64,000 nucleotides of DNA from Actinomycetota bacterium (GTDB lineage: Bacteria > Actinomycetota > UBA4738): assembly GCA_035573915.1 (NCBI GenBank), contig DATLZQ010000052.1, positions 8,614 through 72,613 of the forward strand, written 5' to 3'. The stretch's first letter is position 1. The number at the start of each line of letters is the position of its first letter. The position numbers and the translations under genes were made by a program. The notes beneath the pieces are model-generated. The model saw only the letters and a list, made by a program, of their open reading frames with translations. It ran no database searches and had not been told where the DNA came from. This document shows, one piece after another, positions 1 to 38,917 of this stretch.

Positions 1-1044
1 ATCCGGGCCGGGGCCCTGTTCGACTTCGCCGAGCTCGCCCGGTGCGGGGTGACCACCGTGGTGGACTTCTTCTACCTCCACGACCGGGGCAACGAGAACG
101 CCCTGGCCGTGGTGGAGGCGGCCCGGGAGGTGGGGCTGCGGGTGGTCATCGCCCGGTGCATGTACGACTGGGCCGGGGCGCCCCGCCGCTACCTGGAGTC
201 CATCGACGAGGCCGAACGCAACTTCCGCGAGCTCTTCGCCGAACTCCGGGGGGGCCGGTTCGCCTTCGTCCAGCCCGCCCCCCACTCCGTGCACGCGGCC
301 AGCCCGGACATGATCCGGGCCGGGGCCGACCTGGCCCGGGAGTTCGGGGTCCCCTTCCACATCCACGTGGCCGAGGGCCGCTACGAGCGGGAGCGGACCC
401 TTGAGCGGCACGGCCGGACGCCCGTGGGGTTCCTCGACCACCTGGGGGTCCTCTCCGAGCGGACGCTCATGGTCCACTGCGTGTGGGTGGACGAGGAGGA
501 CCTGGCCCTCATGGCCGCGCGGGGGGTCCGGGTGGTCCACTGCCCCTCGGCCAACGCCTTCCTGGGCGACGGCATCGCCCCGGTGCGGGGGATGCTGGAG
601 CGGGCCATCCCCGTGGCCCTGGGGACCGACGGGGGGTGCACCAACAACCGCCGCTCGGTGTTCGAGGAGATGCGGATGGCGGCCCTCCTGGCCCGGGCCG
701 CGGCCGCCGACGGCTCGGCCCTGGGGGCCGAGGAGGCCCTCCTCATGGGCACGGCCCGGGGCGGGGAGGCCCTGGGGCTCCCGGTGGGCCGGATCGCCCC
801 CGACCACGCCGCGGACCTGGTGGTCCTGGACCTGGAGGCCCTCTCCCTCCAGCCCGCCGCCACCGCCCCCCAGCAGGTGGTCCACGCCATGCAGCCCGAG
901 GCCATCCGCCGGGTGATCGTGGGGGGCGAGACGGTCGTCGAGGGCGGGCGCCTGACCAGGGTGGACGAGCGGGAGGTCGTGGCCAGGGTCCGGGAGGTCA
1001 CCCGGGGGTGGCAGCCCGTGGCCGAGGGGGCCCTCCCCCACTAA
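1..1044 (+). CDS. Amidohydrolase-family protein (metal-dependent deaminase/chlorohydrolase-like), 5'-truncated at window edge
   Basis: Reading frame is open from nt 1 (same frame as listed ORF 49..1044). Translation carries amidohydrolase TIM-barrel hallmarks (FHIHVAEG, HCVW, ALGTDGG). Stop at 1042-1044. Confidence 0.75.
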   Translation: MRAGALFDFAELARCGVTTVVDFFYLHDRGNENALAVVEAAREVGLRVVIARCMYDWAGAPRRYLESIDEAERNFRELFAELRGGRFAFVQPAPHSVHAASPDMIRAGADLAREFGVPFHIHVAEGRYERERTLERHGRTPVGFLDHLGVLSERTLMVHCVWVDEEDLALMAARGVRVVHCPSANAFLGDGIAPVRGMLERAIPVALGTDGGCTNNRRSVFEEMRMAALLARAAAADGSALGAEEALLMGTARGGEALGLPVGRIAPDHAADLVVLDLEALSLQPAATAPQQVVHAMQPEAIRRVIVGGETVVEGGRLTRVDEREVVARVREVTRGWQPVAEGALPH

Positions 1045-1109
1045 ACTTCCCATCCTTCGGGCAGGAAGGGGCCGGGCCCGTCCCGCCCAGCCCAGAGGCG
1101 GAGGAAGGC

Positions 1110-2060
1110 GTGGTCGAGGCGTACCAGTTCGGCATCTACCCGCGCTCGGAGGAGGTGGTGGCTGCCACCCGGGGGCTGGACCGGGGGCGGACGTCCCCCG
1201 AGGAGGTGGCCGTGGCCTTCAAGCGGGACCGGGCGGAGTTCGTCCGGGTCCAGCAGGAGGCCGGCCTGGACTACTTCTCCGACGGGCTGCTCCGCTGGCA
1301 GGACCTGTTCCGTCCCCTGGTCGAGGCCACCCCCGGCCTAGAGGCCAGGGCGCTGGTCCGCTGGTTCGACAACAACGCGTTCTTCCGGGCCCCCGAGCTG
1401 ACCGGCCCCCTGGGGCGGGCGGAGGTCTCCCACGTCTTCGAGGACGGAGCGGAGGTGCCCGAGCCCCGGGTGGCCACCCTCCCCTCCCCCTTCCTCTTCT
1501 CCCGGGTGGTGCGGGGCGCCTCGGACCGGGACGGCCTCATGGTGGAGCTGGCCCGGCTGGTCCTGGCCCCGGTGGCCGGAGCCCTGGCGGAGCGGGGCTA
1601 CCGGCTCCTCCACCTCCAGGAGCCCTGGCTCCCCTACTTCGGGATCGAGGAGGGGTCCTGGGGGAGCTTCGAGCGGGCCCTGGCCGAGGTCCGGGAGGCC
1701 GCCCCGGGGGCCCGCCTGGTCCTCCACACCTGCTTCGCCGACGCCGCGCCCTACGCGGGGCGCCTCCGCCGCCTCCCCGTGGACGCCGTGGGGGTGGACT
1801 TCGTGGAGACCGACCTCGAGGCCCTGGGCTCGGGCTGGGAGGTGGGACTGCTGGCCGGGGTGGTGGACGGGCGCCGGTCCCTGCTCGAGCCGGTGGACCG
1901 GACGGCGGCCTTCGTGCGCCGGGCGGCGGAGGCGCTCTCCCCTCCGTTCGTGCTGGTGTCCTCCAGCTGCGAGCTGGAGTTCCTCTCCGAGCCCCTGGCC
2001 CGGCGCAAGGTCCTCCGCCTGGGCGAGGTGGCCCGGGCCCTCAAGGAGGCGGGGCTGTGA
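1110..2060 (+). CDS. MetE N-terminal-domain-like protein (UroD/MetE superfamily, lacks Zn ligands)
   Basis: Tail of listed ORF 483..2060. GTG at 1110 preceded by GGAGGAAGG. WFDNNAFFRAPEL resembles the MetE N-domain motif WFDTNYHY.VPEL. No His/Cys/Glu/Cys zinc site. Upstream part of the ORF is G/R/P low-complexity run-on. Confidence 0.6.
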   Translation: MVEAYQFGIYPRSEEVVAATRGLDRGRTSPEEVAVAFKRDRAEFVRVQQEAGLDYFSDGLLRWQDLFRPLVEATPGLEARALVRWFDNNAFFRAPELTGPLGRAEVSHVFEDGAEVPEPRVATLPSPFLFSRVVRGASDRDGLMVELARLVLAPVAGALAERGYRLLHLQEPWLPYFGIEEGSWGSFERALAEVREAAPGARLVLHTCFADAAPYAGRLRRLPVDAVGVDFVETDLEALGSGWEVGLLAGVVDGRRSLLEPVDRTAAFVRRAAEALSPPFVLVSSSCELEFLSEPLARRKVLRLGEVARALKEAGL

Positions 2061-3238
2061 CCGAGGCCGCAGCGCTCCTGCGCAAGCCCCTCCTCACCCA
2101 CGAGGTGGGGTCCCTCGACAAGCCCGGGTGGAGGGTCAAGGCCTACGCCGGGGCCCGACTCGAGGAGCGGGACATCGAGGAGGCCCGGCGGTGGGGGGAG
2201 CGGCTTCAGGTCCCGGGCTACGAGGAGCTCCTGGAGCTCCTGCGGCGCACGCCCCTCCCCCGGGAGGAGCGGGCCGAGGTCAAGAGGTGGTCCAGCCGCT
2301 ACGCCCTCCGGCTCCTCGAGTCCGCCGGGCTAGACGTGGTCTACGACGGCGAACAGCAGCGGAGCGAGATGTACCAGTGGGCCGTGGCCCACACGAACGG
2401 CTTCGAGTGGCGGGGGAGCGTCCGGGCCTTCGACAACAAGTACTATTCCAAGGCGGCCGTGGTTGGGCCCGTCTCCGTCAAGGCGCCCTACCACAACGAG
2501 GAGTTCGCCTTCCTGCGCTCGGTGGCCCGGGCCGAGCTCAAGGTGCCGGTGACCGGGGCCTACACCATCGCCGACTGGTCCTTCGACGAGCGCTACTACC
2601 TGGACCAGGACCTCGGGGAGCGCCACGCGGTTCGGCAGGCCCGCCGGAAGGAGGCCCGCCGGCGGTTCGTGCTGGACATGGCCCGGGACGTGATCCGGCC
2701 CAACGTGGAGGCCCTGATCGGGCTGGGGGCCCGCTGGATCCAGATCGACGAGCCCGGGGGATCCACCGAACCGGACGAGCTCGACCTGTTCGTGGAGGCC
2801 TTCAACGTCTCGGTGGAGGGCCTGGACGCCGTGTTCTCCACCCACCTGTGCTTCTCCGACTACGACCTGTTCTTCCCGGCCATCGAGGGGATGACGGCCT
2901 GCCGCCAGTTCTGCGTGGGCTTCGCCAACTACGACCGGCGGGAGCTCGGGCGGCGGGCCGAGGACCGCCCCGGGTACCGGGTCCTCCCCAAGTTCCGCGA
3001 CCTCCCCTACCGCCCGGCGCTGGGGGTGGGGGTGCTGGACATCCACACGGACTTCATCGAGCCCCCCGAGCTGGTCCGGGACCGCGTCCTCCACGCCGTG
3101 GAGGTCATGGGCGACCCCGCCCGGGTCCACGTGACGCCCGACTGCGGGCTGCGCACCAGGTCCTGGGAGGTGGCCTACGCCAAGCTCCGCAACATGGTGG
3201 AGGGCGTGGAGCTGGCCCGGAAGGAGCTGGGGCTCTAG
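2057..3238 (+). CDS. Cobalamin-independent methionine synthase catalytic (MetE C-terminal-like) domain protein
   Basis: GTG start overlaps the upstream stop as GTGA, with AAGGAGG RBS 7 nt upstream. Motifs T.VGSL (T.IGSFP-like), WIQIDEPG (IQIDE), THLCFSDYD (HxCxS zinc ligands), VTPDCGLRTRSW (PDCGL.TR). Confidence 0.75.
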   Translation: MTEAAALLRKPLLTHEVGSLDKPGWRVKAYAGARLEERDIEEARRWGERLQVPGYEELLELLRRTPLPREERAEVKRWSSRYALRLLESAGLDVVYDGEQQRSEMYQWAVAHTNGFEWRGSVRAFDNKYYSKAAVVGPVSVKAPYHNEEFAFLRSVARAELKVPVTGAYTIADWSFDERYYLDQDLGERHAVRQARRKEARRRFVLDMARDVIRPNVEALIGLGARWIQIDEPGGSTEPDELDLFVEAFNVSVEGLDAVFSTHLCFSDYDLFFPAIEGMTACRQFCVGFANYDRRELGRRAEDRPGYRVLPKFRDLPYRPALGVGVLDIHTDFIEPPELVRDRVLHAVEVMGDPARVHVTPDCGLRTRSWEVAYAKLRNMVEGVELARKELGL

Positions 3239-3257: not shown

Positions 3258-4565
3258 TCAGGGCTCGGCCCCCTCCACCCGCAGGACCGAGCGCACCTCC
3301 TCCACCACGTCGAGACCCCGGAGGTCCTCCACCGTGGCCCGCAGGTCCCGCTCCGTGGCCCGGTGGGTGACCAGGACGATCTGGGCCTCGTCCCCCCTCC
3401 CCTCCTGCCACACGGATTTGATGGAGACCCCGTGGTCGGCGAAGGCCCGGGCGATGGCGGCCAGGACCCCCGGCCGGTCCACCACCTCGAGCAGCAGGTA
3501 GTACTGGGCCTCCAGCTCCTCGATGGGGCGCAGGCGACGGGTGGGCCCTTCCGGGAGGACGAAGGCGGGGAGGTGCGAGGCCGCCCCCCCGCCGCCCCGG
3601 GCCAGGTCGATGATGTCCCCCACCACCGAGGTGGCCGTGGGGTCGCCCCCCGCGCCCCGGCCGTAGAGCATGAGGGGGCCCACCCGCTCCCCCTCCACGT
3701 AGACCGCGTTGAAGCTCTCCCGGACCGAGGCCAGGGGGTGGTCGGCGGGGATCATGGCCGGGTGGACCCGCACCGACACCGCTCCCCCGTCGGCCTCCGC
3801 GATGGCCAGCAGCTTCACCACGTAGCCGAGCCGGCGGGCGGCCCGGATGTCCTCGGCCGTCACCCCGGAGATCCCCTCCCGGTAGACGTCGGCCGCCGAG
3901 ACGGGGACATCGAAGGCGATGGTGGCCAGGATGGCCGCCTTGGCCGCGGCGTCGTGGCCCTCCACGTCGTCGGTGGGGTCGGCCTCGGCGTAGCCTAGGG
4001 CCCGGGCCTCGGCCACCGCCTCCTGGAGCGACGCCCCGTCCTCCGTCATGCGGGTGAGGACGTAGTTCGTGGTGCCGTTCACGATCCCCACGAACCGGGA
4101 GATCCGGTCCCCCGCCAGGTGCTCCCGCAGGGGCCGGATGAGGGGGATGCCCCCGCCCACGGCGGCCTCGTAGAGCAGGTCCACCCCGGCCGCCCCCGCC
4201 GCCTCGAACAGCTCCCGCCCGCACGTGGCCAGCAGCTCCTTGTTGGCCGTGACCGCGGGCTTGCCGTGGGCGAAGGCCTCAAGGAGCAGTGAACGGGGGG
4301 GCTCGATCCCCCCGATGAGCTCCACCACCACGTCCACCTCCGGGTCCCGGACCACGTCGAAGGGGTGGGCGGTGAACCGCTCACGGGGGCAGGGGACCCT
4401 CCGGTCCCGGCCGGGGTCCCGGACGGCCACCCGGGCCACCTCGATCCGCCGCCCGGACCGCCGTTCGATCTCCTCGGCGTGCTCGTGGAGCATGCGGACC
4501 ACGGCGGCCCCCACGTTACCGCAGCCCAGGAGCCCCACCCTCAGGACGTCCGCCACGGCGTGCAT
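3258..4565 (-). CDS. hom: Homoserine dehydrogenase
   Basis: N-terminal LGCGNVG NAD(P)-binding motif, NGTTNYVL, C-terminal ACT-like region. Full length about 435 aa. Confidence 0.9.
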   Translation of the reverse strand: MHAVADVLRVGLLGCGNVGAAVVRMLHEHAEEIERRSGRRIEVARVAVRDPGRDRRVPCPRERFTAHPFDVVRDPEVDVVVELIGGIEPPRSLLLEAFAHGKPAVTANKELLATCGRELFEAAGAAGVDLLYEAAVGGGIPLIRPLREHLAGDRISRFVGIVNGTTNYVLTRMTEDGASLQEAVAEARALGYAEADPTDDVEGHDAAAKAAILATIAFDVPVSAADVYREGISGVTAEDIRAARRLGYVVKLLAIAEADGGAVSVRVHPAMIPADHPLASVRESFNAVYVEGERVGPLMLYGRGAGGDPTATSVVGDIIDLARGGGGAASHLPAFVLPEGPTRRLRPIEELEAQYYLLLEVVDRPGVLAAIARAFADHGVSIKSVWQEGRGDEAQIVLVTHRATERDLRATVEDLRGLDVVEEVRSVLRVEGAEP

Positions 4566-4641: not shown

Positions 4642-6306
4642 TCAGTCCGTTCCCGGGAGGCGGATGCCCTTCTCCCGGGCCGTGCGCAGGGCCTCCTCGT
4701 AGCCAGCGTCGGCGTGGCGGACCACCCCGAGGCCGGGGTCGGTGGTGAGGACCCGCTCCAGCCGAGTCGCCGCCTCCTCGGTCCCGTCGGCCACCACCAC
4801 CATCCCGGCGTGGATGGAGTAGCCGATCCCCACCCCGCCTCCGTGGTGGACGCTCACCCAGTGGGCCCCGGCCGCCGTATTGAGGAGGGCGTTGAGGATG
4901 GGCCAGTCGGCGATGGCGTCGGAGCCGTCCCGCATCCCCTCCGTCTCCCGGTAGGGGGAGGCCACGCTCCCCGCGTCCAGGTGGTCCCGGCCGATCACGA
5001 TGGGGGCGGCGACCTCGCCCCGGCGGACCAGCTCGTTGAAGGCCAGGCCCGCCCGGTCCCGCTCGCCGTAGCCCAGCCAGCAGATCCGGGCCGGCAGACC
5101 CTGGAAGGCCACCCGCTCCTCGGCCATCCGCAGCCAGCGGCGGAGCCGCTCGTCCTCGGGGAACAGCTCGGCCACGGCCCGGTCCGTGGCCAAGATGTCC
5201 CCGGGGTCGCCCGAGAGCGCCACCCACCGGAACGGCCCCTTGCCCCGGCAGAACATGGGCCGGATGAAGGCGGGGACGAACCCGGGGTAGGCGAAGGCCC
5301 GCTCGAACCCTCCCCGCCGGGCCCCGGCCCGCAGGTTGTTGCCGTAGTCGAACACCACGGCCCCGGCGTCGAGGAAGCCCACCATGGCCTCGCAGTGGCG
5401 GGCCATGGACTCGTAGGAGCGGCGGACGTACTCCTCGGGGTCCCGGGCCCGGAGCTCGGCCGCCTCCTCCAGGGAGAGCCCGGCCGGGATGTAGCCGCCC
5501 AGGGGGTCGTGGGCGCTGGTCTGGTCGGTGACCACGTCCGCGGGGAACCCCCGCCGGAGGAGCTCCGGGAACACCTCGGCGGCGTTGCCCACCAGGCCCA
5601 CGGAGAGGGGTTTCCCGGCCCGGGCCGCCTCCTCCGCCAGCCTGGCCGCCTCGTCCAGGGAGTCCGTCTCCCGGTCCAGGTAGCGCGTCTTGATGCGCCG
5701 CTCCACCCGGGCCGGGTCCACCTCCACCACCAGGGCCACCCCCTCGTTCATGGTCACGGCCAGGGGCTGGGCGCCCCCCATGCCGCCCAGCCCGGCCGTG
5801 AGCACGATCCGGCCCCGGAGGGTCCCCCCGAAGCGCTGGGAGGCCAGCTCGGCCAGGGTCTCGTAGGTCCCCTGGAGGATCCCCTGGGTCCCGATGTAGA
5901 TCCAGGACCCCGCGGTCATCTGCCCGAACATGGTGAGCCCCGCCCGCTCGAGCTCCCAGAACGTCTCCCAGTCCGCCCACTTGGGCACGAGTATGGCGTT
6001 GGAGATCAGGACCCTGGGGGCCAGCCGGTGGGTGCGGAACACCGCCACGGGCTTGCCGGACTGGACGAGGAGCGTCTCGTCGTCCTCGAGCTCCCGCAGG
6101 CAGCGCACGATCCGGTGGAAGGCGTCCCAGTTCCGGGCGGCCCTGCCGGTGCCCCCGTAGACGACGAGGTCCCGGGGGCGCTCGGCCACCTCGGGGTCGA
6201 GGTTGTTCATGAGCATGCGGAGGGCGGCCTCCTGAGGCCAGCCCTTGCAGGAGATCGCACTCCCCCGGGGGGCCCGGACCTCGGGCACGGCCTCCACGCT
6301 CTGCAA
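4642..6306 (-). CDS. hutU: Urocanate hydratase
   Basis: 554 aa. [25 protein letters not shown] and [10 protein letters not shown] motifs typical of HutU. Confidence 0.9.
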
Positions 6307-25985: not shown

Positions 25986-27368
25986 ATGCAGGTCCTGGAG
26001 AGCTTCCTCGACGCCGTGGGCCGGACTCCTCTGGTCCGCCTCCAGCGCATCACCCAGGGGGTCAGGCCCACCATCCTGGCCAAGCTCGAGATGCTCAACC
26101 CGGGCGGCAGCGTGAAGGATCGCATCGGCCTGCGCATGATCGAGGCCGCAGAGCGGGCCGGGCTGCTCCGGCCGGGGGGCACCATCGTCGAGCCCACCTC
26201 GGGCAACACCGGCCACGGGCTGGCCATCGCCGCGGCCATCAAGGGCTACCGGTGCATCTTCGTGATGCCGGACAAGATGAGCCAGGAGAAGGTGGCCCTC
26301 CTCCGGGCCTACGGGGCGGAGGTGGTGATCACCCCCACCGCGGTGCCCCCCGACTCCCCCGAGTCCTACTACCGGGTGGCGGACCGCCTGACCGAGGAGA
26401 TCCCCGGGGCCTTCCAGCCCAACCAGTACTTCAACCCGGAGAACCCCCGTGCCCACTACGAGACCACCGGCCCCGAGATCTGGGAGCAGACCGAGGGCAA
26501 GGTGGACGTCCTGGTGGCCGGGGTGGGGACCGGGGGGACGATCACCGGGGTGGGCCGCTACCTCAAGGAGCGGAACCCGGACGTCATGGTGGTGGGGGCG
26601 GACCCGGAGGGGTCGGTGTTCTCCGCCCCCGAGGAGCCGGCCCGCCCCTACCTCGTGGAGGGGATCGGGGAGGACTTCTGGCCCGAGACCTTCGACCCCT
26701 CCGTGGTAGACCGCTGGGTCCGGGTCTCGGACCGGGACTCGTTCCTCACGGCCCGGGCCATCACTCGCCAGGAGGGGATCCTCGTTGGGGGCTCCTCGGG
26801 GACGGCCATGTTCGCCGCCCTCACCGTGGCCCGGGAGCTGGACCGGGACGCCCTCATGGTCGTGATCTTCCCGGACACGGGGCGGAACTACCTCTCCAAG
26901 CTCTACTCGGACTCCTGGATGCTCCAGTACGGGTTCCTGGAGCGGCCCGAGGTAGTCCGGGTGGAGGAGGTCCTGGCCGCCCGGCGGGCCGACCTCCCCC
27001 CGCTCATCGTCGTCCAGGCCCACGAGAAGGTCCGCCAGGCCGTGGACCGCCTCCAGCAGTACGGCATCTCCCAGGCCCCCGTGGTCCGGGGGGACTCCCA
27101 CGAGGTGAGCGCGTTCGTGGGCTCCGTGCGGGAGGCGCAGCTCCTCGACCGCATCTTCCGAGACTCCGACGCCCTCCAGGCGGACGTGGCCGAGGTCATG
27201 GCCCCGCCGCTCCCCATGGTGGAGTTCGACGAGCCCATGGAGACGGCCTTCGCCGAGCTCCAGGTGGCCCCGGCCGTGGTGGTCACCAAGGAAGGGCAGG
27301 CCCTGGGCGTGCTCACCCGCGCCGACCTCCTCGAGTTCCTGGCCCACCGGGGACGGACCCGGCGCTGA
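25986..27368 (+). CDS. Cystathionine beta-synthase (with tandem CBS domains)
   Basis: PLP fold-type II with lysine motif (GSVKDRIG), TSGNTG, GTGGTITG, plus a C-terminal CBS-domain pair. RBS AAGGGAGG. Confidence 0.88.
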   Translation: MQVLESFLDAVGRTPLVRLQRITQGVRPTILAKLEMLNPGGSVKDRIGLRMIEAAERAGLLRPGGTIVEPTSGNTGHGLAIAAAIKGYRCIFVMPDKMSQEKVALLRAYGAEVVITPTAVPPDSPESYYRVADRLTEEIPGAFQPNQYFNPENPRAHYETTGPEIWEQTEGKVDVLVAGVGTGGTITGVGRYLKERNPDVMVVGADPEGSVFSAPEEPARPYLVEGIGEDFWPETFDPSVVDRWVRVSDRDSFLTARAITRQEGILVGGSSGTAMFAALTVARELDRDALMVVIFPDTGRNYLSKLYSDSWMLQYGFLERPEVVRVEEVLAARRADLPPLIVVQAHEKVRQAVDRLQQYGISQAPVVRGDSHEVSAFVGSVREAQLLDRIFRDSDALQADVAEVMAPPLPMVEFDEPMETAFAELQVAPAVVVTKEGQALGVLTRADLLEFLAHRGRTRR

Positions 27369-27373
27369 CCGCC

Positions 27374-28018
27374 GTGCGGGCCCTGGGCGTCGACGTGGGG
27401 GCGGGCCCCAAGTGGCTGGACGTGGTGGTCCTGGAGGGGGACGGCTGCCCGGTGGCCACGGAGCGGAGGGTCGAGCCCGGCGCGCTCGCGGGGCTCGTCG
27501 AGCGCTGGAGGCCGGACGTGGTGGCCATCGACTCCCCGCCCTCCTGGGCCCGGTCGGGGGGGTCCCGGCGGGCCGAGCGGGACCTGCTGCGCCTCGGGAT
27601 CCACGCCTTCCCCGTGCCGTCCGAGCCTCGGGCCGGGGGGCGCTTCTTCGAATGGATGGGGGTGGGGTTTCTCGCCTTCGAGGCGGCGGCCCGGGCGGGC
27701 TACCCCCGCTACCGGTGGGGGCCGGTGCGGGGGACCGCCGTCGAGGTCTTCCCCCACGCGTCCGCCGTGGCCCTGGCCGGGCAGCTCCCCCCGCGGGGCG
27801 CCCACCTCCGGCGGTGGCGGGCCGCCGTCCTCGAGCGGAGCGGGGTAGCCGTGGACGGCCTGGCCTCCGCGGACCAGGTGGACGCGGCCCTGGCGGCGCT
27901 CACGGGGATCCGAGCCCTGCAGGGGCGGTTCACGCCAGTGGGCGAGCCCGAGGAGGGCGTGGTGGTCCTGCCCGAAGCCCCGCTGGCGGGCCCCTTCCGC
28001 CGTCCGGCCGTGGGATAG
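27374..28018 (+). CDS. DUF429-domain protein (predicted RNase H-like fold)
   Basis: ALGVDVGAG...VAIDSP pattern of DUF429. GTG start chosen just after the CBS stop; the upstream part of listed ORF 25898..28018 is run-on. Confidence 0.55.
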   Translation: MRALGVDVGAGPKWLDVVVLEGDGCPVATERRVEPGALAGLVERWRPDVVAIDSPPSWARSGGSRRAERDLLRLGIHAFPVPSEPRAGGRFFEWMGVGFLAFEAAARAGYPRYRWGPVRGTAVEVFPHASAVALAGQLPPRGAHLRRWRAAVLERSGVAVDGLASADQVDAALAALTGIRALQGRFTPVGEPEEGVVVLPEAPLAGPFRRPAVG

Positions 28019-28094
28019 GGTTGAACCGTCCGTGGGCCAGGCCTGGCCGCCCGGCGGCCAGGCCGCCCCCAGGCTTGGAGCGAGGTGAGCGACC

Positions 28095-29222
28095 GTGCGG
28101 TTCGAGACCAAGGCCATCCACGTCGGCCAGGACCCCGACCCCGCCTACGGGGCGGTGAGCGTCCCCATCTACCAGACGTCCACCTACGCCCAGGAGGAGG
28201 TAGGGCGCCACAAGGGCTACGACTACGCCCGGACGGGCAACCCCACCCGCACGGCCCTGGAGGCCGTGGTGGCCGCCCTGGAGGGGGGCCACGGGGCCCT
28301 GGCCTTCGCCTCGGGCATGGCCGCCGAGGCCACCCTGTTCCACCTCCTCCGCCCCGGCCACCACGTCCTCATCGGGGACGACGTCTACGGAGGGACCTAC
28401 CGCCTGCTGGCCCGGGTCCTCCAGCAGTCGGCGGGCCTGCGGTTCGACACGGTGGACCTAACGGACCTCGAGGCCGTGGGCAAGGCCATCCGGGACGAGA
28501 CCCGGGTGGTCTGGGTGGAGACCCCCACCAACCCGCTCCTCAAGGTGGTGGACATCGCGGCCGTGGCCCGGCTGGCCCACGAGGCCGGGGCCTGGTGCGT
28601 GGTGGACAACACGTTCGCCTCGCCCTACCTCCAGCAGCCCATCGCCCTGGGGGCCGACCTGGTGGTCCACTCCAGCACGAAGTACCTGGGCGGCCACTCC
28701 GACGTGGTAGGCGGGGTGGTGGTGACCACGGACCCCGAGGTCCACGACCGGCTCAAGTTCCTCCAGAACGCCGTGGGGGCGGTCCCCGGGCCCGTGGACT
28801 GCTTTTTGGTCCTCCGAGGGATCAAGACCCTGGCCCTGCGCATGGAGGCCCACTGCCGGGGGGCCCGGCGGGTGGCCGAGTTCCTCTCCTCCCACCCCCG
28901 GGTCCGCCGGGTCCACTACCCCGGGCTCCCCTCCCACCCGGGCCACGAGGTGGCGGCCCGCCAGATGCGGGGGTTCGGGGGCATGGTGTCCTTCGAGACC
29001 GCCACGGAGGAGGAGGCCCTGGAGGTCTGCCGGCGGACCGAGCTCTTCTTCCTGGCCGAGTCGCTGGGCGGGGTGGAGTCCCTCATCGAGCACCCCGCCC
29101 GCATGACCCACGCCAGCGTGGCTGGCTCCCCCCTGGAGGTCCCCCCCACGCTGGTCCGGCTGTCCGTGGGGGTCGAGCACCCCGACGACCTCGTGGAGGA
29201 CCTGGCCCGGGCCTTGGGCTGA
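28095..29222 (+). CDS. Cystathionine gamma-lyase / gamma-synthase family PLP enzyme
   Basis: Cys/Met-metabolism PLP-dependent enzyme motifs (SSTKYLGGHSDVVGG with PLP-lysine, YARTGNPTR). Confidence 0.88.
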   Translation: MRFETKAIHVGQDPDPAYGAVSVPIYQTSTYAQEEVGRHKGYDYARTGNPTRTALEAVVAALEGGHGALAFASGMAAEATLFHLLRPGHHVLIGDDVYGGTYRLLARVLQQSAGLRFDTVDLTDLEAVGKAIRDETRVVWVETPTNPLLKVVDIAAVARLAHEAGAWCVVDNTFASPYLQQPIALGADLVVHSSTKYLGGHSDVVGGVVVTTDPEVHDRLKFLQNAVGAVPGPVDCFLVLRGIKTLALRMEAHCRGARRVAEFLSSHPRVRRVHYPGLPSHPGHEVAARQMRGFGGMVSFETATEEEALEVCRRTELFFLAESLGGVESLIEHPARMTHASVAGSPLEVPPTLVRLSVGVEHPDDLVEDLARALG

Positions 29223-34472: not shown

Positions 34473-34522
34473 CGTTCCAGCCCATGGTAGCGAGGCCCCC
34501 GACGTGAGCGGAGGGAGGAACC

Positions 34523-34995
34523 GTGGAGAGGGTCGACGTGTTCGTCATCGGCGGGGGCGGAGCCGGGTCCGACGTGACCGGCTCCCTGGCCGCCGCGGGG
34601 CTGCGGGTGACCATGGCCAGCGCGACAAGCTCGGGGGGAGTGCGCCAACTACGGCTGCGACCCTACGAAGGCCATGCTCAAAGCGGCTCGGGTGGCCGCC
34701 ATGGCCCGACGCGCCCCCGGTACGGGGTCCGGGTAGGAAGCGTGGAGGTGGACTTCCCGGCGGTGATGGCCCGGGTGCCGCCGTCTCGTCGAGGAGGGGA
34801 CCGCCGCCGGCGCTCGTCCCTTCGAAGAGAAGGGAGCCCGGGTGCTCTTTCAGGTCGTCCCCCCGGGTCACCTACTGCGAGCCGGAGGTCGCGAGCGTGG
34901 GGCTTACCGAGGAGCAGGCCGAGGAGGCGGGGGGCCCCACCCTGTCCGAGTCCCTCAAATCGGCCTTCCGACAGCTCGCCGACCGGCTTGGGTGA
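34523..34995 (+). pseudogene. Degraded remnant of an FAD-dependent pyridine-nucleotide-disulfide oxidoreductase (DLDH / mercuric-reductase class)
   Basis: Three fragments spread over three frames: N-terminal FAD motif VDVFVIGGGGAGS; then, in another frame, CANYGCDPTKAMLKAA (redox-disulfide region); then, in a third frame, the interface motif VTYCEPEVASVGLTEEQAEEAG. Total about 470 nt versus about 1.4 kb for an intact gene. Confidence 0.55.
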
Positions 34996-35104
34996 CCGCC
35001 CAACCGGGGCGCAGACCCCGGTCGGGCACGGAAGGGCTCGCGGACGGCCCCGGAGGACGGCGGGACAGGGTCTGGGCAGGCCCAGGGAGGCCGCACTCCT
35101 CGGT

Positions 35105-35461
35105 ATGATGGGGCCCGTGGGCGAGACCGCCACCCAGCTCCTCTCCGTGACCGAGAAGGCCGCGGCCAAGGCCCGGGCTCTGGCCGAGCGCGACGGCCTC
35201 CCCGGCGCCTACCTCCGGGTCCGGGTCGTGGCCGGCGGGTGCTCCGGGTTCACCTACCGCCTGTCGTTCGAGCGGGAGCCCGACCCCCACGACCACGTGG
35301 TCGAGGGCCACGGGCTGCGGGTCCTGGTGGACCCGAGGAGCGCCCCCCTCCTCGAGGGTTCGACCCTGGACTTCAGCGACGCCCTCCTGGGGGGAGGGTT
35401 CAAGGTCCGCAACCCCCGGGCCGTGCACGAGTGCGCCTGCGGCGAGTCGTTCGCCGTGTAG
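35105..35461 (+). CDS. HesB/IscA-family iron-sulfur cluster insertion protein
   Basis: 119 aa with the C-terminal CACGESF motif and a conserved internal Cys (GGCSGF). Confidence 0.85.
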   Translation: MMGPVGETATQLLSVTEKAAAKARALAERDGLPGAYLRVRVVAGGCSGFTYRLSFEREPDPHDHVVEGHGLRVLVDPRSAPLLEGSTLDFSDALLGGGFKVRNPRAVHECACGESFAV

Positions 35462-35467
35462 GCGCCC

Positions 35468-36142
35468 TCAGCGTAGCTGGCGGACCTGCCCCAGCCCCTT
35501 CACCTCAAGCAGCCGGAGCTCGAGGTCCACCCAGGGCGAGCGGACCTCGACCCGGGCCAGGAGCTGGGTCCACAGCCGCTCCGGGACCTCGGGCTCTCGC
35601 CCGTCCTCGAAGACGAAGCCCCAGGCCGGCCCGGCCAGGAAGTCGGCCCTCACGCTGACCGGGGTGTCCGGGTCGGCCGTCAGCAGCTCGTATCCAGGGT
35701 GCTCCTCGGCGAACCCGGACAGCCACCGCCAGAACCGGGCGGGGGCGGTGGCCAGGACCGCCCCCTGCTCCACGGCCTTCCTAGTCTGGGCCAGGGCCAT
35801 CTTGTGGAGGTCCGCCATGACGGCGTTGGCGAAGCCCAGGTGGTCCTCGCCCCTCGGGTGCCACTGGAGCTCGATGGCCAGCTGCGGGGTCCTGGTCCGA
35901 GCGCTCACCACCACGTCGCTGGGCCTGGCCAGGACTCCCGACGGCCCCAGGGGCTGGTCCACCGAGACCAGCTCGGACTGGCCGAACTGGAAGGCCCGCC
36001 GGAGGTAGGCCCGGAGGTCGGAGTCGAAGCTGAACCGCGTGGCCGGGGCCGACCGGGAGGCCAGCCCCAGGTGGTTGACGAGCGCCTGGAGCTCCCCGGC
36101 CGCGGCCAGGACCGCCCCCTGGATGCCCTCCGCCTCCAGCAT
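35468..36142 (-). CDS. Hypothetical protein
   Basis: ATG at 36142 (MLEAEGIQG...). No family recognised. The upstream part of the listed ORF is G/R-rich run-on. Confidence 0.4.
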
Positions 36143-36288
36143 CCCTCTCCCCGCCCGACGACTCCGTCCCACGGGCCCGCCCGGGTCCCACGGGCCCGTC
36201 CCGTGCCGGCCCGGGTCCCCGCGCGCCACAACCCGCGGGAGCCTAGCAAGCCCCGCCGGCGGATGACAGGGCGCCCCGCCGACCCTCC

Positions 36289-36304: not shown

Positions 36305-37465
36305 ATGGCCGCACCCGAGAAGACCCAGTGGCGGGACCTCTACACCGAAGTGGTGGCCACCGGCCTGTGCACGGGGTGCTCGGCGTGCGTGGTGGTCTGC
36401 CCCTTCCACGTCCTGGGCTACGAGGACCACAAGCCCGTCCAGCTAGAGGGGCTGGGCCCGGACCGCTGCACCCACGGGGACAAGGGCTGCGACATCTGCA
36501 CCCGGGCCTGCCCTCGGTTCCGGGCGTGGGAGCCCGAGATCGACCGCCTCCTGTTCGGACGCACCCGGCGGCCCGAGGAGGTCATCGGGGTGCACCGGGA
36601 CATCGTCCTGGCCCGGGCCACGGACCCCCGGGTGCTGGCCCAGGGCCAGGACGGCGGGGTGGTCTCCGCCCTGCTCATCTGGGGGCTGGAGACGGGCCAG
36701 ATCGACGGGGCCTGCACCTCCCGCCTCTCCGACGAGCGGCCCTGGGACGCCGAGCCCACCGTGGTCACGGACGTGGAGGGGGTCCTGGCCACGGCCGGCT
36801 CCCGCTATACGTACTCGGCCAACCCCCTGGCCCTGGTCAAGGCGGCGGAAATGGGCCTCTCCAAGGTGGCCCTGGTGGGGATGTCCTGCCAGGCCAGCGT
36901 GACCGGGGCCCTGGAGGCCCGGCGGGTCAACAAGTGGCGGCGGCGCATCGCCTGGACCCTCGGGCTGCTCTGTTCGAAGACCTTCACGTACGAGGGGCTC
37001 AACGTGGAGATCGCCCAGAAGGAGCTGGGGCTGCGCCTGGAGGACGTGGTCCGGGTCAACGTCAAGGGCAAGCTCCTCTTCTACACGGCCGACGGGCAGG
37101 AGCACACCTACTCGCTCAAGAAGGCCCACCGATACACGCGGACCGGGTGCCTCAGGTGCCCCGACTTCGCCGCCGAGCACGCCGACCTCTCCTTCGGCGG
37201 CCTGGGGCAGACCGAGGGCTGGACCCTCACCGTGATCCGCACCGAGCTCGGGGAGCGGATCTTCCGGGACGCGGTCCGGGACGGCGTGGTCGAGTTCCGG
37301 CCGGGAAGCGAGGACCCCGAGGCCATCGCCCTCATGGAGCGGCTGGCCGCCCGGCAGCGACAGCGGTGGCCGGGGGACGAGCTGCCCGAGGAGTGGTCCT
37401 TCCCCGGCCTGGTCCCCGAGGCGGCGGGTTCGCCCTCGGCTCCCGCCCCCGCCGACCCGTCCTGA
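36305..37465 (+). CDS. Coenzyme F420 hydrogenase/dehydrogenase beta-subunit (FrhB/FpoF)-family protein with N-terminal 2x[4Fe-4S] ferredoxin domain
   Basis: [12 protein letters not shown] and CDICTRACP cluster motifs followed by an FrhB_FdhB N and C domain pattern. Confidence 0.65.
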
Positions 37466-37528: not shown

Positions 37529-37858
37529 TCAGGAGCCGGCCTGGAAGTTGGCCACGAACGGGTGGTCCTTGTCGAGCGGGCCCACCTGCGCCGCCCCACC
37601 CGGCGAGCCCAGCCCAGTCACGGCGTCGCTGAAGAACTCGGCGTTGATCTGGTTGTAGATCTTCCACTCGGCCGGCACGTCGTCCTCGTAGAAGATGGCG
37701 GTCACCGGGCACACGGGCTCGCAGGCCCCGCAGTCCACGCACTCGTCGGGGTGGATGTAGAGCATGCGCGCGCCCTCGTAGATGCAGTCGACGGGGCACT
37801 CGTCCACGCAGGCCCGGTCCTTCACGTCGATGCAGGGCTCGCAGATCGTGTAGGTCAT
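37529..37858 (-). CDS. fdxA: 7Fe ferredoxin (FdxA-type, 3Fe-4S + 4Fe-4S)
   Basis: MTYTICEPCIDVKDRACVDECPVDCIY...CVDCGACEPVCPV. RBS AAGGGGGA. Confidence 0.85.
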   Translation of the reverse strand: MTYTICEPCIDVKDRACVDECPVDCIYEGARMLYIHPDECVDCGACEPVCPVTAIFYEDDVPAEWKIYNQINAEFFSDAVTGLGSPGGAAQVGPLDKDHPFVANFQAGS

Positions 37859-37933
37859 GCCGGTTTCCCCCTTTTCCACCGTGTCGACCGTGCAAATCGA
37901 AGTCTACCGCTTCGGGCCCGGCTGACAAGCCCC

Positions 37934-38917
37934 CTAGCGCTCCACCGCCGGGTTGGGGGCGGCGGCCATGAGGGTGCCCAGCACGGAGGAGAACCGGTCC
38001 AGGGTGGCCACCGGGTAGCAGAAGACCACGTCGGCCCCGGCCCGGCGGAACTGCTCGAACCGCTCCATGGCCTCCCGCCGCCCCCCGGTCACGGCCACGG
38101 CCCGGACCAGCGTCTCGGGGACGTCCTGGGGGCGTCCCTCGGCGAAGGCCTTGGCCGCCAGCCGGGCCTCCTCGCCCAGGCCCATGGCCTCGAACTGGCG
38201 GAGGTACTGGGGGAGGGCCGCGTACCGCCCGGTCATCTCCCGCAGGCTCTCCATGGCCACCCGCTCGGCCACCCCGAGGCAGCAGCGGACGTAGACGGCC
38301 AGGGTGAGGCGGGAGGGGTCCCGTCCGGCCTGCCGCGCCGCCCGGTCCAGGACCCGGCGGGCCCGGGCCGCCCGCTCCGGGGTGCACCAGTTGAGGATCG
38401 CCCCGTCCGCCACCCGGGCGGCCACCTCGAGCATCCGGTCCCCCAGCGCGCCCAGCCAGATGGGGGGCGGCGGCGGCAGGGGCTCGAGGTCCAGCCGGAA
38501 CCGGGGGACCCCGAACCGCTCGGCCCGGACCGTCTCCCCCGCCAGGGCCGCGCGCACCGTGGCCACGTACGCCCGGACGGTCTCCAGGGTCTCCCGCCCG
38601 GGGGGCAGGGACCCCGAGCCCAGGCCCAGGACCAGGCGTCCGCCGGAGAGCTCCTGGAGGGTGGCGGCGGCCATGGCCACCGCGGCCGGGCTCCGGGACC
38701 GGAGGTCGACCACCCCGGTCCCCAGCCGGACCCGGGAGGTGACCACGGCGAACCCGGCCAGGGTCGCGAAGGCCTCCCGGGCGTCGATCTCGGGCACGAA
38801 GACGGCTTCGTAGCCCGTGAGGTCGACGGTCTCCACGACCTCCCGCAGCTCGGGCCAGGGCAGCGGGTCGCGCACCACCGCCCCGACCCGGAGGGCCTCC
38901 CGCCCCGGCTCGGTCAC
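37934..38917 (-). CDS. LLM-class (luciferase-like) F420-dependent oxidoreductase
   Basis: Luciferase-like monooxygenase TIM barrel. GTG at 38917 with GAGGAGG RBS. Confidence 0.65.
   Translation of the reverse strand: MTEPGREALRVGAVVRDPLPWPELREVVETVDLTGYEAVFVPEIDAREAFATLAGFAVVTSRVRLGTGVVDLRSRSPAAVAMAAATLQELSGGRLVLGLGSGSLPPGRETLETVRAYVATVRAALAGETVRAERFGVPRFRLDLEPLPPPPPIWLGALGDRMLEVAARVADGAILNWCTPERAARARRVLDRAARQAGRDPSRLTLAVYVRCCLGVAERVAMESLREMTGRYAALPQYLRQFEAMGLGEEARLAAKAFAEGRPQDVPETLVRAVAVTGGRREAMERFEQFRRAGADVVFCYPVATLDRFSSVLGTLMAAAPNPAVER

Follow-up and report, generated by a model that had tools for sequence, protein, structure and literature searches.

A probable split-MetE methionine synthase encoded by two overlapping genes in an uncultured actinobacterial lineage, with glycine at a zinc-ligand position

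Two overlapping genes at the locus

The stretch of DNA analyzed here (the window) comprises 64,000 nucleotides of contig DATLZQ010000052.1 (assembly GCA_035573915.1, labelled Actinomycetota bacterium), and close to its start lie two overlapping genes, open reading frames 1 and 2 (ORF1 and ORF2), whose products resemble the two barrels of the cobalamin-independent methionine synthase MetE. The pair is a bacterial member of the class described as split MetE, in which the N-terminal domain and the catalytic domain are two proteins (Price, Deutschbauer & Arkin 2021, PLoS Genet, PMC7857596), and it probably encodes a two-subunit homocysteine methyltransferase that makes methionine without cobalamin. 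The catalytic subunit has a glycine at the position of one of the four MetE zinc ligands, and this substitution is fixed in the clade to which the window belongs.

The two genes fill the interval from 1110 to 3238 (Table 1), and both have the composition of coding sequence in this DNA; the window has a GC content of 73.4%, and real genes within it have a GC content at third codon positions (GC3) of ~0.95-0.99. The GTG start chosen for ORF1 agrees with that of its closest homolog, which is also 316 aa long and aligns with 100% coverage. A sequence-only reading of this DNA had reported a GTGA overlap between the genes, an AAGGAGG ribosome-binding site belonging to ORF2 itself, and several motifs, and all of these can be read in the sequence; WFDNNAFFRAPEL is found in ORF1, and IQIDEPG, HLCFS, and PDCGLRTR are found in ORF2. 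No riboswitch or other Rfam family and no tRNA was found in the whole 64 kb window, and scans for consensus promoters and terminators around the operon gave no match, a result that is uninformative at 73% GC.

Table 1. Features of the gene pair and of other genes discussed; positions are those of the window unless a locus is named.
Feature	Position	Strand	Remarks
Amidohydrolase	1-1044	+	Upstream of ORF1; cut by window start
ORF1 Shine-Dalgarno-like sequence GGAGGAAGG	1100-1108	+	Read from sequence
ORF1, 316 aa	1110-2060	+	GTG 1110 to TGA 2060; predicted N-barrel-like, noncatalytic MetE subunit; 'folate-binding component' of Price et al.
ORF1 Arg132	1503-1505	+	See text
ORF1 Trp173	1626-1628	+	EPW motif, beta4-alpha4 loop, barrel top
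ORF1 degenerate metal-site positions	H206 1725-1727; C208 1731-1733; D230 1797-1799; C287 1968-1970	+	From BLASTP alignment to ORF2 H263, C265, C363
ORF2 ribosome-binding site AAGGAGG	2043-2049	+	7 nt before GTG; within final ORF1 codons (…LKEAGL-stop)
GTGA, ORF2 start/ORF1 stop overlap	2057-2060	+	Signature of translational coupling
ORF2, 393 aa	2057-3238	+	GTG 2057 to TAG 3238; predicted split-MetE catalytic zinc/homocysteine barrel
ORF2 homocysteine residues	S19 2111-2113; E99 2351-2353; D231 2747-2749	+	E. coli S433, E484, D599
ORF2 zinc site	H263 2843-2845; C265 2849-2851; C363 3143-3145	+	E. coli H641, C643, C726
ORF2 Gly288	2918-2920	+	Fourth-ligand Glu position (E. coli E665, T. maritima E642)
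hom (homoserine dehydrogenase)	3258-4565	-	Adjacent to ORF2, convergent
hutU (urocanase)	4642-6306	-
Cystathionine beta-synthase, DUF429 gene, PRK07811-type enzyme	25986-29222	+	DUF429 gene between the other two
Interval without ORF of coding-type GC3	34473-35467		~1 kb
253-aa ORF	35468-36229	-	No Pfam match
FrhB/FpoF-like F420-reducing hydrogenase beta subunit	36305-37465	+
Small unannotated ORF	37529-37879	-
Luciferase-like monooxygenase family gene	37934-38917	-
~320-aa gene preceding the pair in other genomes	L067:106-1071; L069:5006-5992; L071:4989-5969; L073:5024-5992; L074:2168-3118		Methylenetetrahydrofolate reductase-like; four Patescibacteria-type genomes, one labelled Gammaproteobacteria

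A catalytic barrel and a noncatalytic partner

ORF2 matches the Pfam family Meth_synt_2 at 97.9 bits (cut-off 21) with no match to Meth_synt_1, and its highest-scoring NCBIfam models, PRK04326 (246 bits) and PRK01207 (222 bits), are those of archaeal-type stand-alone 'methionine synthase', compared with 92 bits on the full-length MetE model TIGR01371. At E<=1e-3 there are 2891 homologs of ORF2, and those listed are all stand-alone proteins of 385-411 aa, most of them 74-79% identical; for ORF1 there are 864 homologs at the same threshold, those listed again being all stand-alone (315-342 aa) and mostly 60-67% identical, and ORF2 is under the stronger constraint. In a residue survey of 73 ORF2-family proteins aligned with E. 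coli MetE, Glu99, Asp231, His263, Cys265, and Cys363 are invariant (73/73), and Ser19 lies within the sequence EVGS, whose GS motif is invariant across the family alignment.

ORF1 matches Meth_synt_1 best (47.2 bits, cut-off 27, residues 78-270), with a weaker full-length match to Meth_synt_2 (31.4 bits), and the description of the two genes as N-domain-like and catalytic in the sequence-only reading is thus borne out. Its NCBIfam matches are to PRK04326 (72 bits), PRK08575, PRK06438, and the N-terminal halves of MetE models, all below their curated cut-offs, and its best alignments are to MetE of fungi, streptococci, and plants, over their N-terminal halves. When 62 ORF1-family proteins are combined in a profile, it scores 69.8 bits against the N-domain of E. 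coli MetE and 46.9 bits against the C-domain. An AlphaFold2 model of ORF1 (predicted local distance difference test [pLDDT] 83, predicted template modeling [pTM] score 0.85) has eight strands, and in a Foldseek search of the PDB the top 31 hits are MetE-family structures (query TM-score [TMq] 0.66-0.77), followed by UroD at 0.52-0.56. The possibility raised earlier that ORF1 might belong to an unrelated UroD-like family can accordingly be set aside, with TM scores of ~0.75 for MetE and ~0.53 for UroD and no UroD family matched in Pfam or NCBIfam.

Several features mark ORF1 as the noncatalytic barrel, a reading that rests on the loss of the homocysteine-binding positions, which are replaced by Ile9, Leu60, and position 170 (Gln in the window; Gln or Glu in the family). 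The earlier description of ORF1 as having no zinc ligands was too simple, since the window protein has His206, Cys208, Asp230, and Cys287 at the four equivalent positions. The cysteine positions, though, are not conserved in the family, and with the homocysteine site lost the noncatalytic assignment stands. Among the 62 aligned homologs, position 206 is His in 59 and position 230 is Asp in all 62. At position 208, 53 of them have Tyr, the residue of the MetE N barrel, and the window protein alone has Cys; a 93%-identical relative (P0001) that is outside the 62 aligned likewise has Cys there. Position 287 is Ser in 30 and Cys in 21, with Ala among the remaining variants. An invariant hairpin, R84-W85-F86-x-N88-N89, corresponds to the KWF(D/N)TNYHY hairpin of MetE N barrels, and ORF2 has a related motif, RAFDNKYY, at the equivalent position. 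The first ~78 residues of ORF1 (GIYPRSEE…TRGLxRGR) resemble beta1-alpha1 of the catalytic barrel and not the MetE N terminus, which accounts for the full-length matches of ORF1 to catalytic models.

The two proteins are evidently paralogs, to judge from their alignment: BLASTP of ORF1 against ORF2 gives 25% identity over 331 columns, nearly the full length (E=3e-7), and hhalign of the two family alignments gives a probability of 99.1%. ORF1 against ORF2 scores 37 bits over 331 columns, compared with 33 bits over 185 columns for the N and C domains of E. coli MetE, a comparison that hints, without establishing it, that the split pair is in a state closer to the ancestral one than are the two barrels of MetE.

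Glycine replaces the glutamate zinc ligand in one clade

Position 288 of ORF2 divides the 73 surveyed proteins cleanly. It is Gly in 60 of the 60 members of a clade from Actinomycetota, Chloroflexota, and Dormibacterota (loci L002-L068, L075), and Glu in all 13 others, which are from Patescibacteria, other bacteria including Spirochaetes, and the archaeal groups Thermoplasmata and Bathyarchaeia (within loci L067-L081). The window protein reads …CRQFCVGFANYD… where the archaeal and Patescibacteria proteins read …CSQ(F/L)A(L/W)E(F/L)(A/S)NRD…, and in a profile of the Glu-type sequences their Glu aligns to E. coli Glu665. The sequence xVGFANxD or xIGFANxD is present in 117 of the 120 closest database proteins; in the other three the regular expression matched a different motif.

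In Thermotoga maritima MetE the His ligand lies at the end of beta5, the Glu at the end of beta6, and a Cys after beta8 (Pejchal & Ludwig 2005). The positions of the corresponding elements in a low-confidence model of ORF2 match this description: strand 259-264 runs one residue past His263, strand 282-288 has Gly288 as its last residue, and Cys363 comes after strand 357-360. The glutamate (Glu642 in T. maritima, Glu665 in E. coli) has been termed invariant in MetE and leaves the zinc upon homocysteine binding, and BHMT has Leu at the equivalent of the MetE Glu ligand (Pejchal & Ludwig 2005).

We found no compensating Cys, His, Asp, or Glu gained in either subunit of the Gly288 clade when the clade-specific columns were checked. 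These columns hold hydrophobic and aromatic swaps together with Ser131, Arg132, Pro154, and Ser285 of ORF1. In MetH, zinc has three protein ligands. The Gly288 site can be viewed as a His-Cys-Cys site completed by water that would still be catalytic, because the remaining six functional residues do not vary and conservation of the protein as a whole is very strong.

A further pattern concerns the partner subunit. Trp173 and Arg132 of ORF1 are nearly invariant in the partners of Gly288-type catalytic subunits and are absent from the partners of Glu-type subunits, which may reflect co-variation across a subunit interface.

The pair is a conserved unit

We scanned 185,579 species-representative genomes by pattern and obtained 224 loci with an ORF1 relative, of which 80 were kept. 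These come from Actinomycetota, Chloroflexota, Dormibacterota, Patescibacteria, Thermoplasmata, and Bathyarchaeia, with single metagenome-assembled genomes (MAGs) of Spirochaetes and Gammaproteobacteria. At all 78 loci not cut by a contig end, an ORF2 homolog follows immediately in the same orientation, and these loci span at least six phyla and include both bacteria and archaea, so the comparison of related genomes proposed with the original observation returns the same gene order throughout. An NTGA stop/start overlap is present at 56 of 78 loci scored (77 informative loci and L001, a copy from a Logan assembly), and most of the others have the genes 0-26 nt apart. An AAGGAG-type motif within the conserved …LKE… C terminus of the first gene recurs in many related loci. 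The genes flanking the pair vary by lineage and include DUF2079, Fe-S biosynthesis, PFOR, AraC regulator, and other genes, and the pair itself is therefore the conserved unit. The nearest species-representative genomes, at 66% (ORF1) and ~76-78% (ORF2) identity, are all 'Actinomycetota bacterium' MAGs. Split MetE is thus common in several uncultured bacterial phyla, and the arrangement, published in 2021 (PMC7857596), is not the uncommon one that the sequence-only reading had supposed; likewise, the idea of a two-subunit enzyme is an accepted prediction and not a new one.

The junction is the same in other assemblies. A Logan assembly of run SRR7882662 (L001) contains the identical two ORFs and identical junction, and a relative assembled independently from four other runs (L083, L084; 93% identical in ORF1 and 96% in ORF2) has genes for 316 and 393 aa, a 4-nt overlap, and flanking genes all as in the window. 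No assembly compared has a continuous ORF across the junction. An exhaustive HMMER scan with ORF1 returned 850 clusters at E<=1e-3, and none of the best 150 cluster representatives, which were inspected, is fused at ~750 aa. On the full-length MetE models TIGR01371 and PRK05222, ORF1 reaches 56.5 and 59.1 bits and ORF2 reaches 92.4 and 84.5 bits, where the cut-offs are 930 and 541. We considered one natural fusion, at L062:3569-5914 (Actinobacteria bacterium UBA5182), and rejected it: the 5' and 3' parts of its first gene are in different frames, with a ~60-codon insertion and a change of frame partway, and one frame that stays open through the second gene gives the appearance of a fusion. The locus probably reflects an error in assembly of the MAG, or else a pseudogene.

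Neighboring genes and the methyl donor

The gene hom adjoins ORF2, as had been noted, but it is convergent with it, and the adjacency is kept only in close relatives. Beyond hom lie hutU, a HAD hydrolase gene, and a GH1 beta-glucosidase gene with a sugar ABC transporter. The amidohydrolase upstream of ORF1 matches TRZ/ATZ, DadD (5'-deoxyadenosine deaminase), MtaD (5'-methylthioadenosine/S-adenosylhomocysteine deaminase), and HutF models about equally and all below cut-off, and together with hutU it recurs beside the pair only in the closest Actinomycetota MAGs (L002, L005). We do not count it as methionine-related, since it travels with hutU; it may belong to histidine utilization and not to the methionine genes. 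Conserved neighbors were in general of no use as a clue to function, the immediate neighbors being highly variable.

A further linkage is seen in other genomes. At five loci a ~320-aa gene stands directly before the pair (Table 1), and its product matches PDB 3IJD, an 'uncharacterized protein', at E=1.8e-30 and the flavin-independent mycobacterial methylenetetrahydrofolate reductase 7WMW at E=9.5e-5 (also 8BGR, ~1e-4). We take 3IJD to be a Clostridium thermocellum protein crystallized with 5-methyl-tetrahydrofolate. In L067 and L069 the pair is also followed by a pyridoxal phosphate (PLP) enzyme of the Cys/Met type, and loci of this kind look like compact methionine operons with a candidate noncanonical methylenetetrahydrofolate reductase. 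These neighbors tie the family to methionine synthesis and, more weakly, to methyl-folate supply.

The residues that contact folate in T. maritima MetE are partly kept in ORF2: the stacking Trp539 is present (the W of ADWSF), and Arg493 is conservatively replaced by Lys. In ORF1 an invariant Arg84 precedes the WFDNN hairpin. We favor 5-methyl-tetrahydrofolate as the methyl donor, if by a modest degree.

Elsewhere in the window, a cystathionine beta-synthase gene (TIGR01137, 584 bits) and a gene for a PLP enzyme of the cystathionine gamma-synthase/lyase type (PRK07811, 590 bits), both above cut-off and separated by a DUF429 gene, likely form a reverse-transsulfuration pair; the organism therefore handles homocysteine in more than one way. 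Other genes of the window are mentioned for completeness. An FrhB/FpoF-like gene lies near a luciferase-like monooxygenase family gene, with a small unannotated ORF between the two. About 1 kb contains no ORF with coding-type GC3, and beside it is a 253-aa ORF lacking a Pfam match (Table 1).

A probable two-subunit methionine synthase and its alternatives

The following scheme would account for the properties of the pair. ORF2 would be a (beta-alpha)8 catalytic barrel that binds zinc through His263, Cys265, and Cys363 and holds L-homocysteine through Ser19, Glu99, and Asp231, the thiol being activated as a zinc thiolate. ORF1, a paralogous barrel in which the homocysteine site is lost, may pack face-to-face on ORF2 in a complex, close the active-site cleft, and help to hold a methyl-pterin donor, by analogy with the N barrel of single-chain MetE, for which a structural rationale has been given (Pejchal & Ludwig 2005). 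The donor in this bacterium would most likely be 5-methyl-tetrahydrofolate, with its methyl group passed directly to homocysteine to yield methionine. The GTGA overlap and internal AAGGAGG would couple translation of the subunits, favoring equimolar synthesis. The resting zinc of the Gly288 clade probably has three protein ligands and an exchangeable water, as in MetH and BHMT, because the residue that supplies the fourth ligand in MetE is glycine there. We consider it likely that the two genes encode a split-MetE enzyme, which makes methionine without cobalamin.

Several points weigh against this reading and bear on how far it can be pressed. Of the four His-Cys-Glu-Cys zinc ligands of MetE (E. 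coli H641, C643, E665, C726), ORF2 lacks the Glu. Its structure model is poor (pLDDT 59) and unfit for a fold search or for active-site geometry. Like archaeal single-domain enzymes, ORF2 lacks the beta4-alpha4 segment with Glu583, which has been deleted or replaced (…IDEPGGSTEP…); the folate contact Arg496 of T. maritima is not conserved, and ORF1 offers no clear equivalent of the N-barrel residues Arg15 and Lys18. No metF, metH, or other folate gene is present among 52 of the ~54 genes of the window that are annotated, although a 64-kb sample carries little weight. None of the papers we found describes a biochemical or genetic experiment on a split MetE; a search for work on PF1268/PF1269 or for later split-MetE biochemistry gave only Price et al. 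2021 and a one-line mention in GapMind 2026.

Some of these points would also suit a different arrangement, in which ORF2, acting alone, is a 'core' methionine synthase supplied with methyl groups by a corrinoid protein or some other donor that is not a folate, in the manner of MesA, MesB, and MesC, and ORF1 is an accessory protein (a chaperone, a regulator, or a docking site for the donor). MesA is the nearest of the four Mes enzymes to split-MetE catalytic subunits (~38% identical; PMC7857596), the pterin-binding Glu583 segment is missing and equivalents of Arg15 and Lys18 are unclear in ORF1, and the MetE N barrel is not truly a 'folate-binding domain' (Pejchal & Ludwig 2005). Nonetheless, an ORF1-type gene is strictly adjacent at 78/78 loci and coupled; the most frequent immediate-neighbor families listed include no corrinoid-protein, cobalamin, or DUF1852 family; and at the Glu484 position ORF2 has Glu99, in contrast to the Gln of MesA and MesC. 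The profile scores point the same way, with ORF2 at 75.5 bits on PRK00957 (cut-off 258), 77.6 on PRK09121, and 22.4 on PRK06052, other models of stand-alone methionine synthases, against 246 bits on PRK04326, as does the reductase-like gene linked to the pair at five loci. We regard an ORF2 that acts without ORF1 in catalysis as unlikely.

A second alternative is specific to the Gly288 clade, whose members could have given up methionine synthesis for another S- or Se-methyl transfer, for use of another donor such as S-methylmethionine, or for a nonenzymatic role. The loss of a glutamate described as invariant in MetE, the fixation of Gly in all 60 clade members and in 117 of 120 database matches checked, and the absence of a compensating Cys, His, Asp, or Glu in either subunit are what one would expect from such a change. 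However, the three homocysteine residues and the His/Cys/Cys triad are invariant in a very strongly conserved protein, the MetE Glu leaves the zinc anyway when homocysteine binds, MesB tolerates Asp at the Glu-ligand position, MetH manages with three protein ligands, and BHMT has Leu at the Glu equivalent; a changed activity seems quite improbable to us.

An artefactual split or recent pseudogene, in which a frameshift from sequencing or assembly would have broken a canonical metE, is suggested only by the different frames and 4-nt overlap of the ORFs, as a 1-nt indel could yield, and we reject it as having a negligible chance of being correct, given the identical junction in the independent Logan assembly, the same overlap in the 93%-identical relative from four other runs, the arrangement kept at 78 loci, an ORF2 that has a complete beta1 'EVGS' segment of its own at the start and an N terminus conserved in the family, the absence of the MetE interdomain linker, scores of 56-92 bits on full-length MetE models with cut-offs of 541-930, and the lack of a fused relative among the 150 top representatives. 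The translationally coupled two-cistron arrangement proposed in the sequence-only reading is upheld by these independent assemblies together with the universal synteny and the domain assignments.

Returning to the split-MetE interpretation, a more specific and tentative proposal can be made for the large, mostly uncultured Actinomycetota/Chloroflexota/Dormibacterota clade: it may use a split MetE with a three-ligand (His-Cys-Cys) zinc, free of the Glu-linked zinc inversion proposed for MetE and nearer in chemistry to MetH and BHMT. The pair may also have stayed near the condition that followed duplication and came before MetE fusion, because ORF1 keeps a catalytic-type N terminus and has His and Asp at ligand-equivalent positions. 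We lean somewhat away from this proposal as a whole.

Recognition of the pair has practical consequences. Database entries for both genes read either 'hypothetical protein' or the full '5-methyltetrahydropteroyltriglutamate--homocysteine methyltransferase', and treating their products as subunits of a single enzyme supplies the methionine-synthase step when the metabolism of abundant soil lineages is reconstructed and bears on the predicted vitamin B12 independence of these lineages. A bacterial, probably tetrahydrofolate-using split MetE would be a convenient system for studying the role of the second MetE barrel, and the Gly288 clade is a natural experiment on what the glutamate zinc ligand does. 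What goes beyond earlier knowledge is the spread of split MetE in uncultured bacterial phyla and the fixation of Gly at the Glu-ligand position in the window's clade; current understanding is not overturned, and the pair is a solid, expected member of a described class.

Relation to known systems

Split MetE was predicted from the homologs PF1268 and PF1269 of Pyrococcus furiosus, which are encoded by adjacent genes and form a complex, as judged by co-fractionation (PMC7857596). In that study it was found in 107 of 8,015 reference proteomes (Halobacteria, 73; Thermoprotei, 20), its genes were nearly always adjacent, and it was the only recognizable methionine synthase in 106 of the 107 carriers; it was presented as the principal methionine synthase of halophiles and thermophiles among the archaea, and one bacterium, Sulfobacillus sp. 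hq2, was named among the carriers (PMC7857596). GapMind 2026 still refers to split MetE, in a one-line mention, as 'previously proposed'. The window pair resembles this class in its organization: both proteins are no longer than 400 aa (316 and 393), the partner matches Meth_synt_1 best and the catalytic protein matches Meth_synt_2 only, the genes are adjacent in the order N then C, the S/E/D homocysteine residues are present, and the catalytic subunit is nearest PRK04326/PRK01207 and the partner nearest PRK08575/PRK06438. It is thus a bacterial member of this class, and the novelty is modest. The differences are in the host, a high-GC uncultured bacterial lineage whose nearest relatives are 'Actinomycetota bacterium' MAGs, unlike the mainly archaeal carriers of Price et al., and, relative to the archaeal and Patescibacteria homologs examined, in the Gly at the zinc-ligand position. 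All NCBIfam scores of the window pair are below the curated cut-offs. Price et al. also set a threshold of at least 200 bits in phmmer against PF1269 (METE_PYRFU) for the catalytic component, for which NCBIfam scores serve here as a proxy. On PRK04326/PRK01207, ORF2 scores 246/222 bits, the archaeal homologs 286-302/235-244, and two other Glu-type bacterial proteins 253-300/248-250. The partners in archaea and with other Glu-type subunits have PRK04326 or PRK08575 as best models, as ORF1 does, with somewhat higher scores.

Single-chain MetE (TIGR01371; E. coli b3829; T. maritima TM1286, PDB 1XPG/1XDJ) shares with the pair two barrels in the same domain order, the His-x-Cys…Cys zinc motif, the QIDEP beta4 motif, the pterin-stacking Trp, and the WFDxN hairpin in the noncatalytic barrel. 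The pair differs from it in being two ORFs with no covalent linker, in having neither the Glu583 beta4-alpha4 insertion nor the Glu zinc ligand, and in the first ~78 residues of ORF1, which are of the catalytic type (GIYPRS…).

The folate-independent core synthases MesA, MesB, MesC, and MesD are, like ORF2, single Meth_synt_2 barrels of ~300-390 aa with the zinc motif; they have no N-barrel partner gene, unlike ORF2. MesD requires MesX (DUF1852) and oxygen, and DUF1852 is not among the listed neighbor families of the pair; against 3RPD, which is of the MesD/MesX type, ORF2 scores 68.6 bits. MetH and BHMT, finally, resemble the Gly288 clade only in its presumed coordination number, three protein zinc ligands with an exchangeable fourth position, and they differ from it in having a (Cys)3 ligand set and in belonging to a different barrel family.

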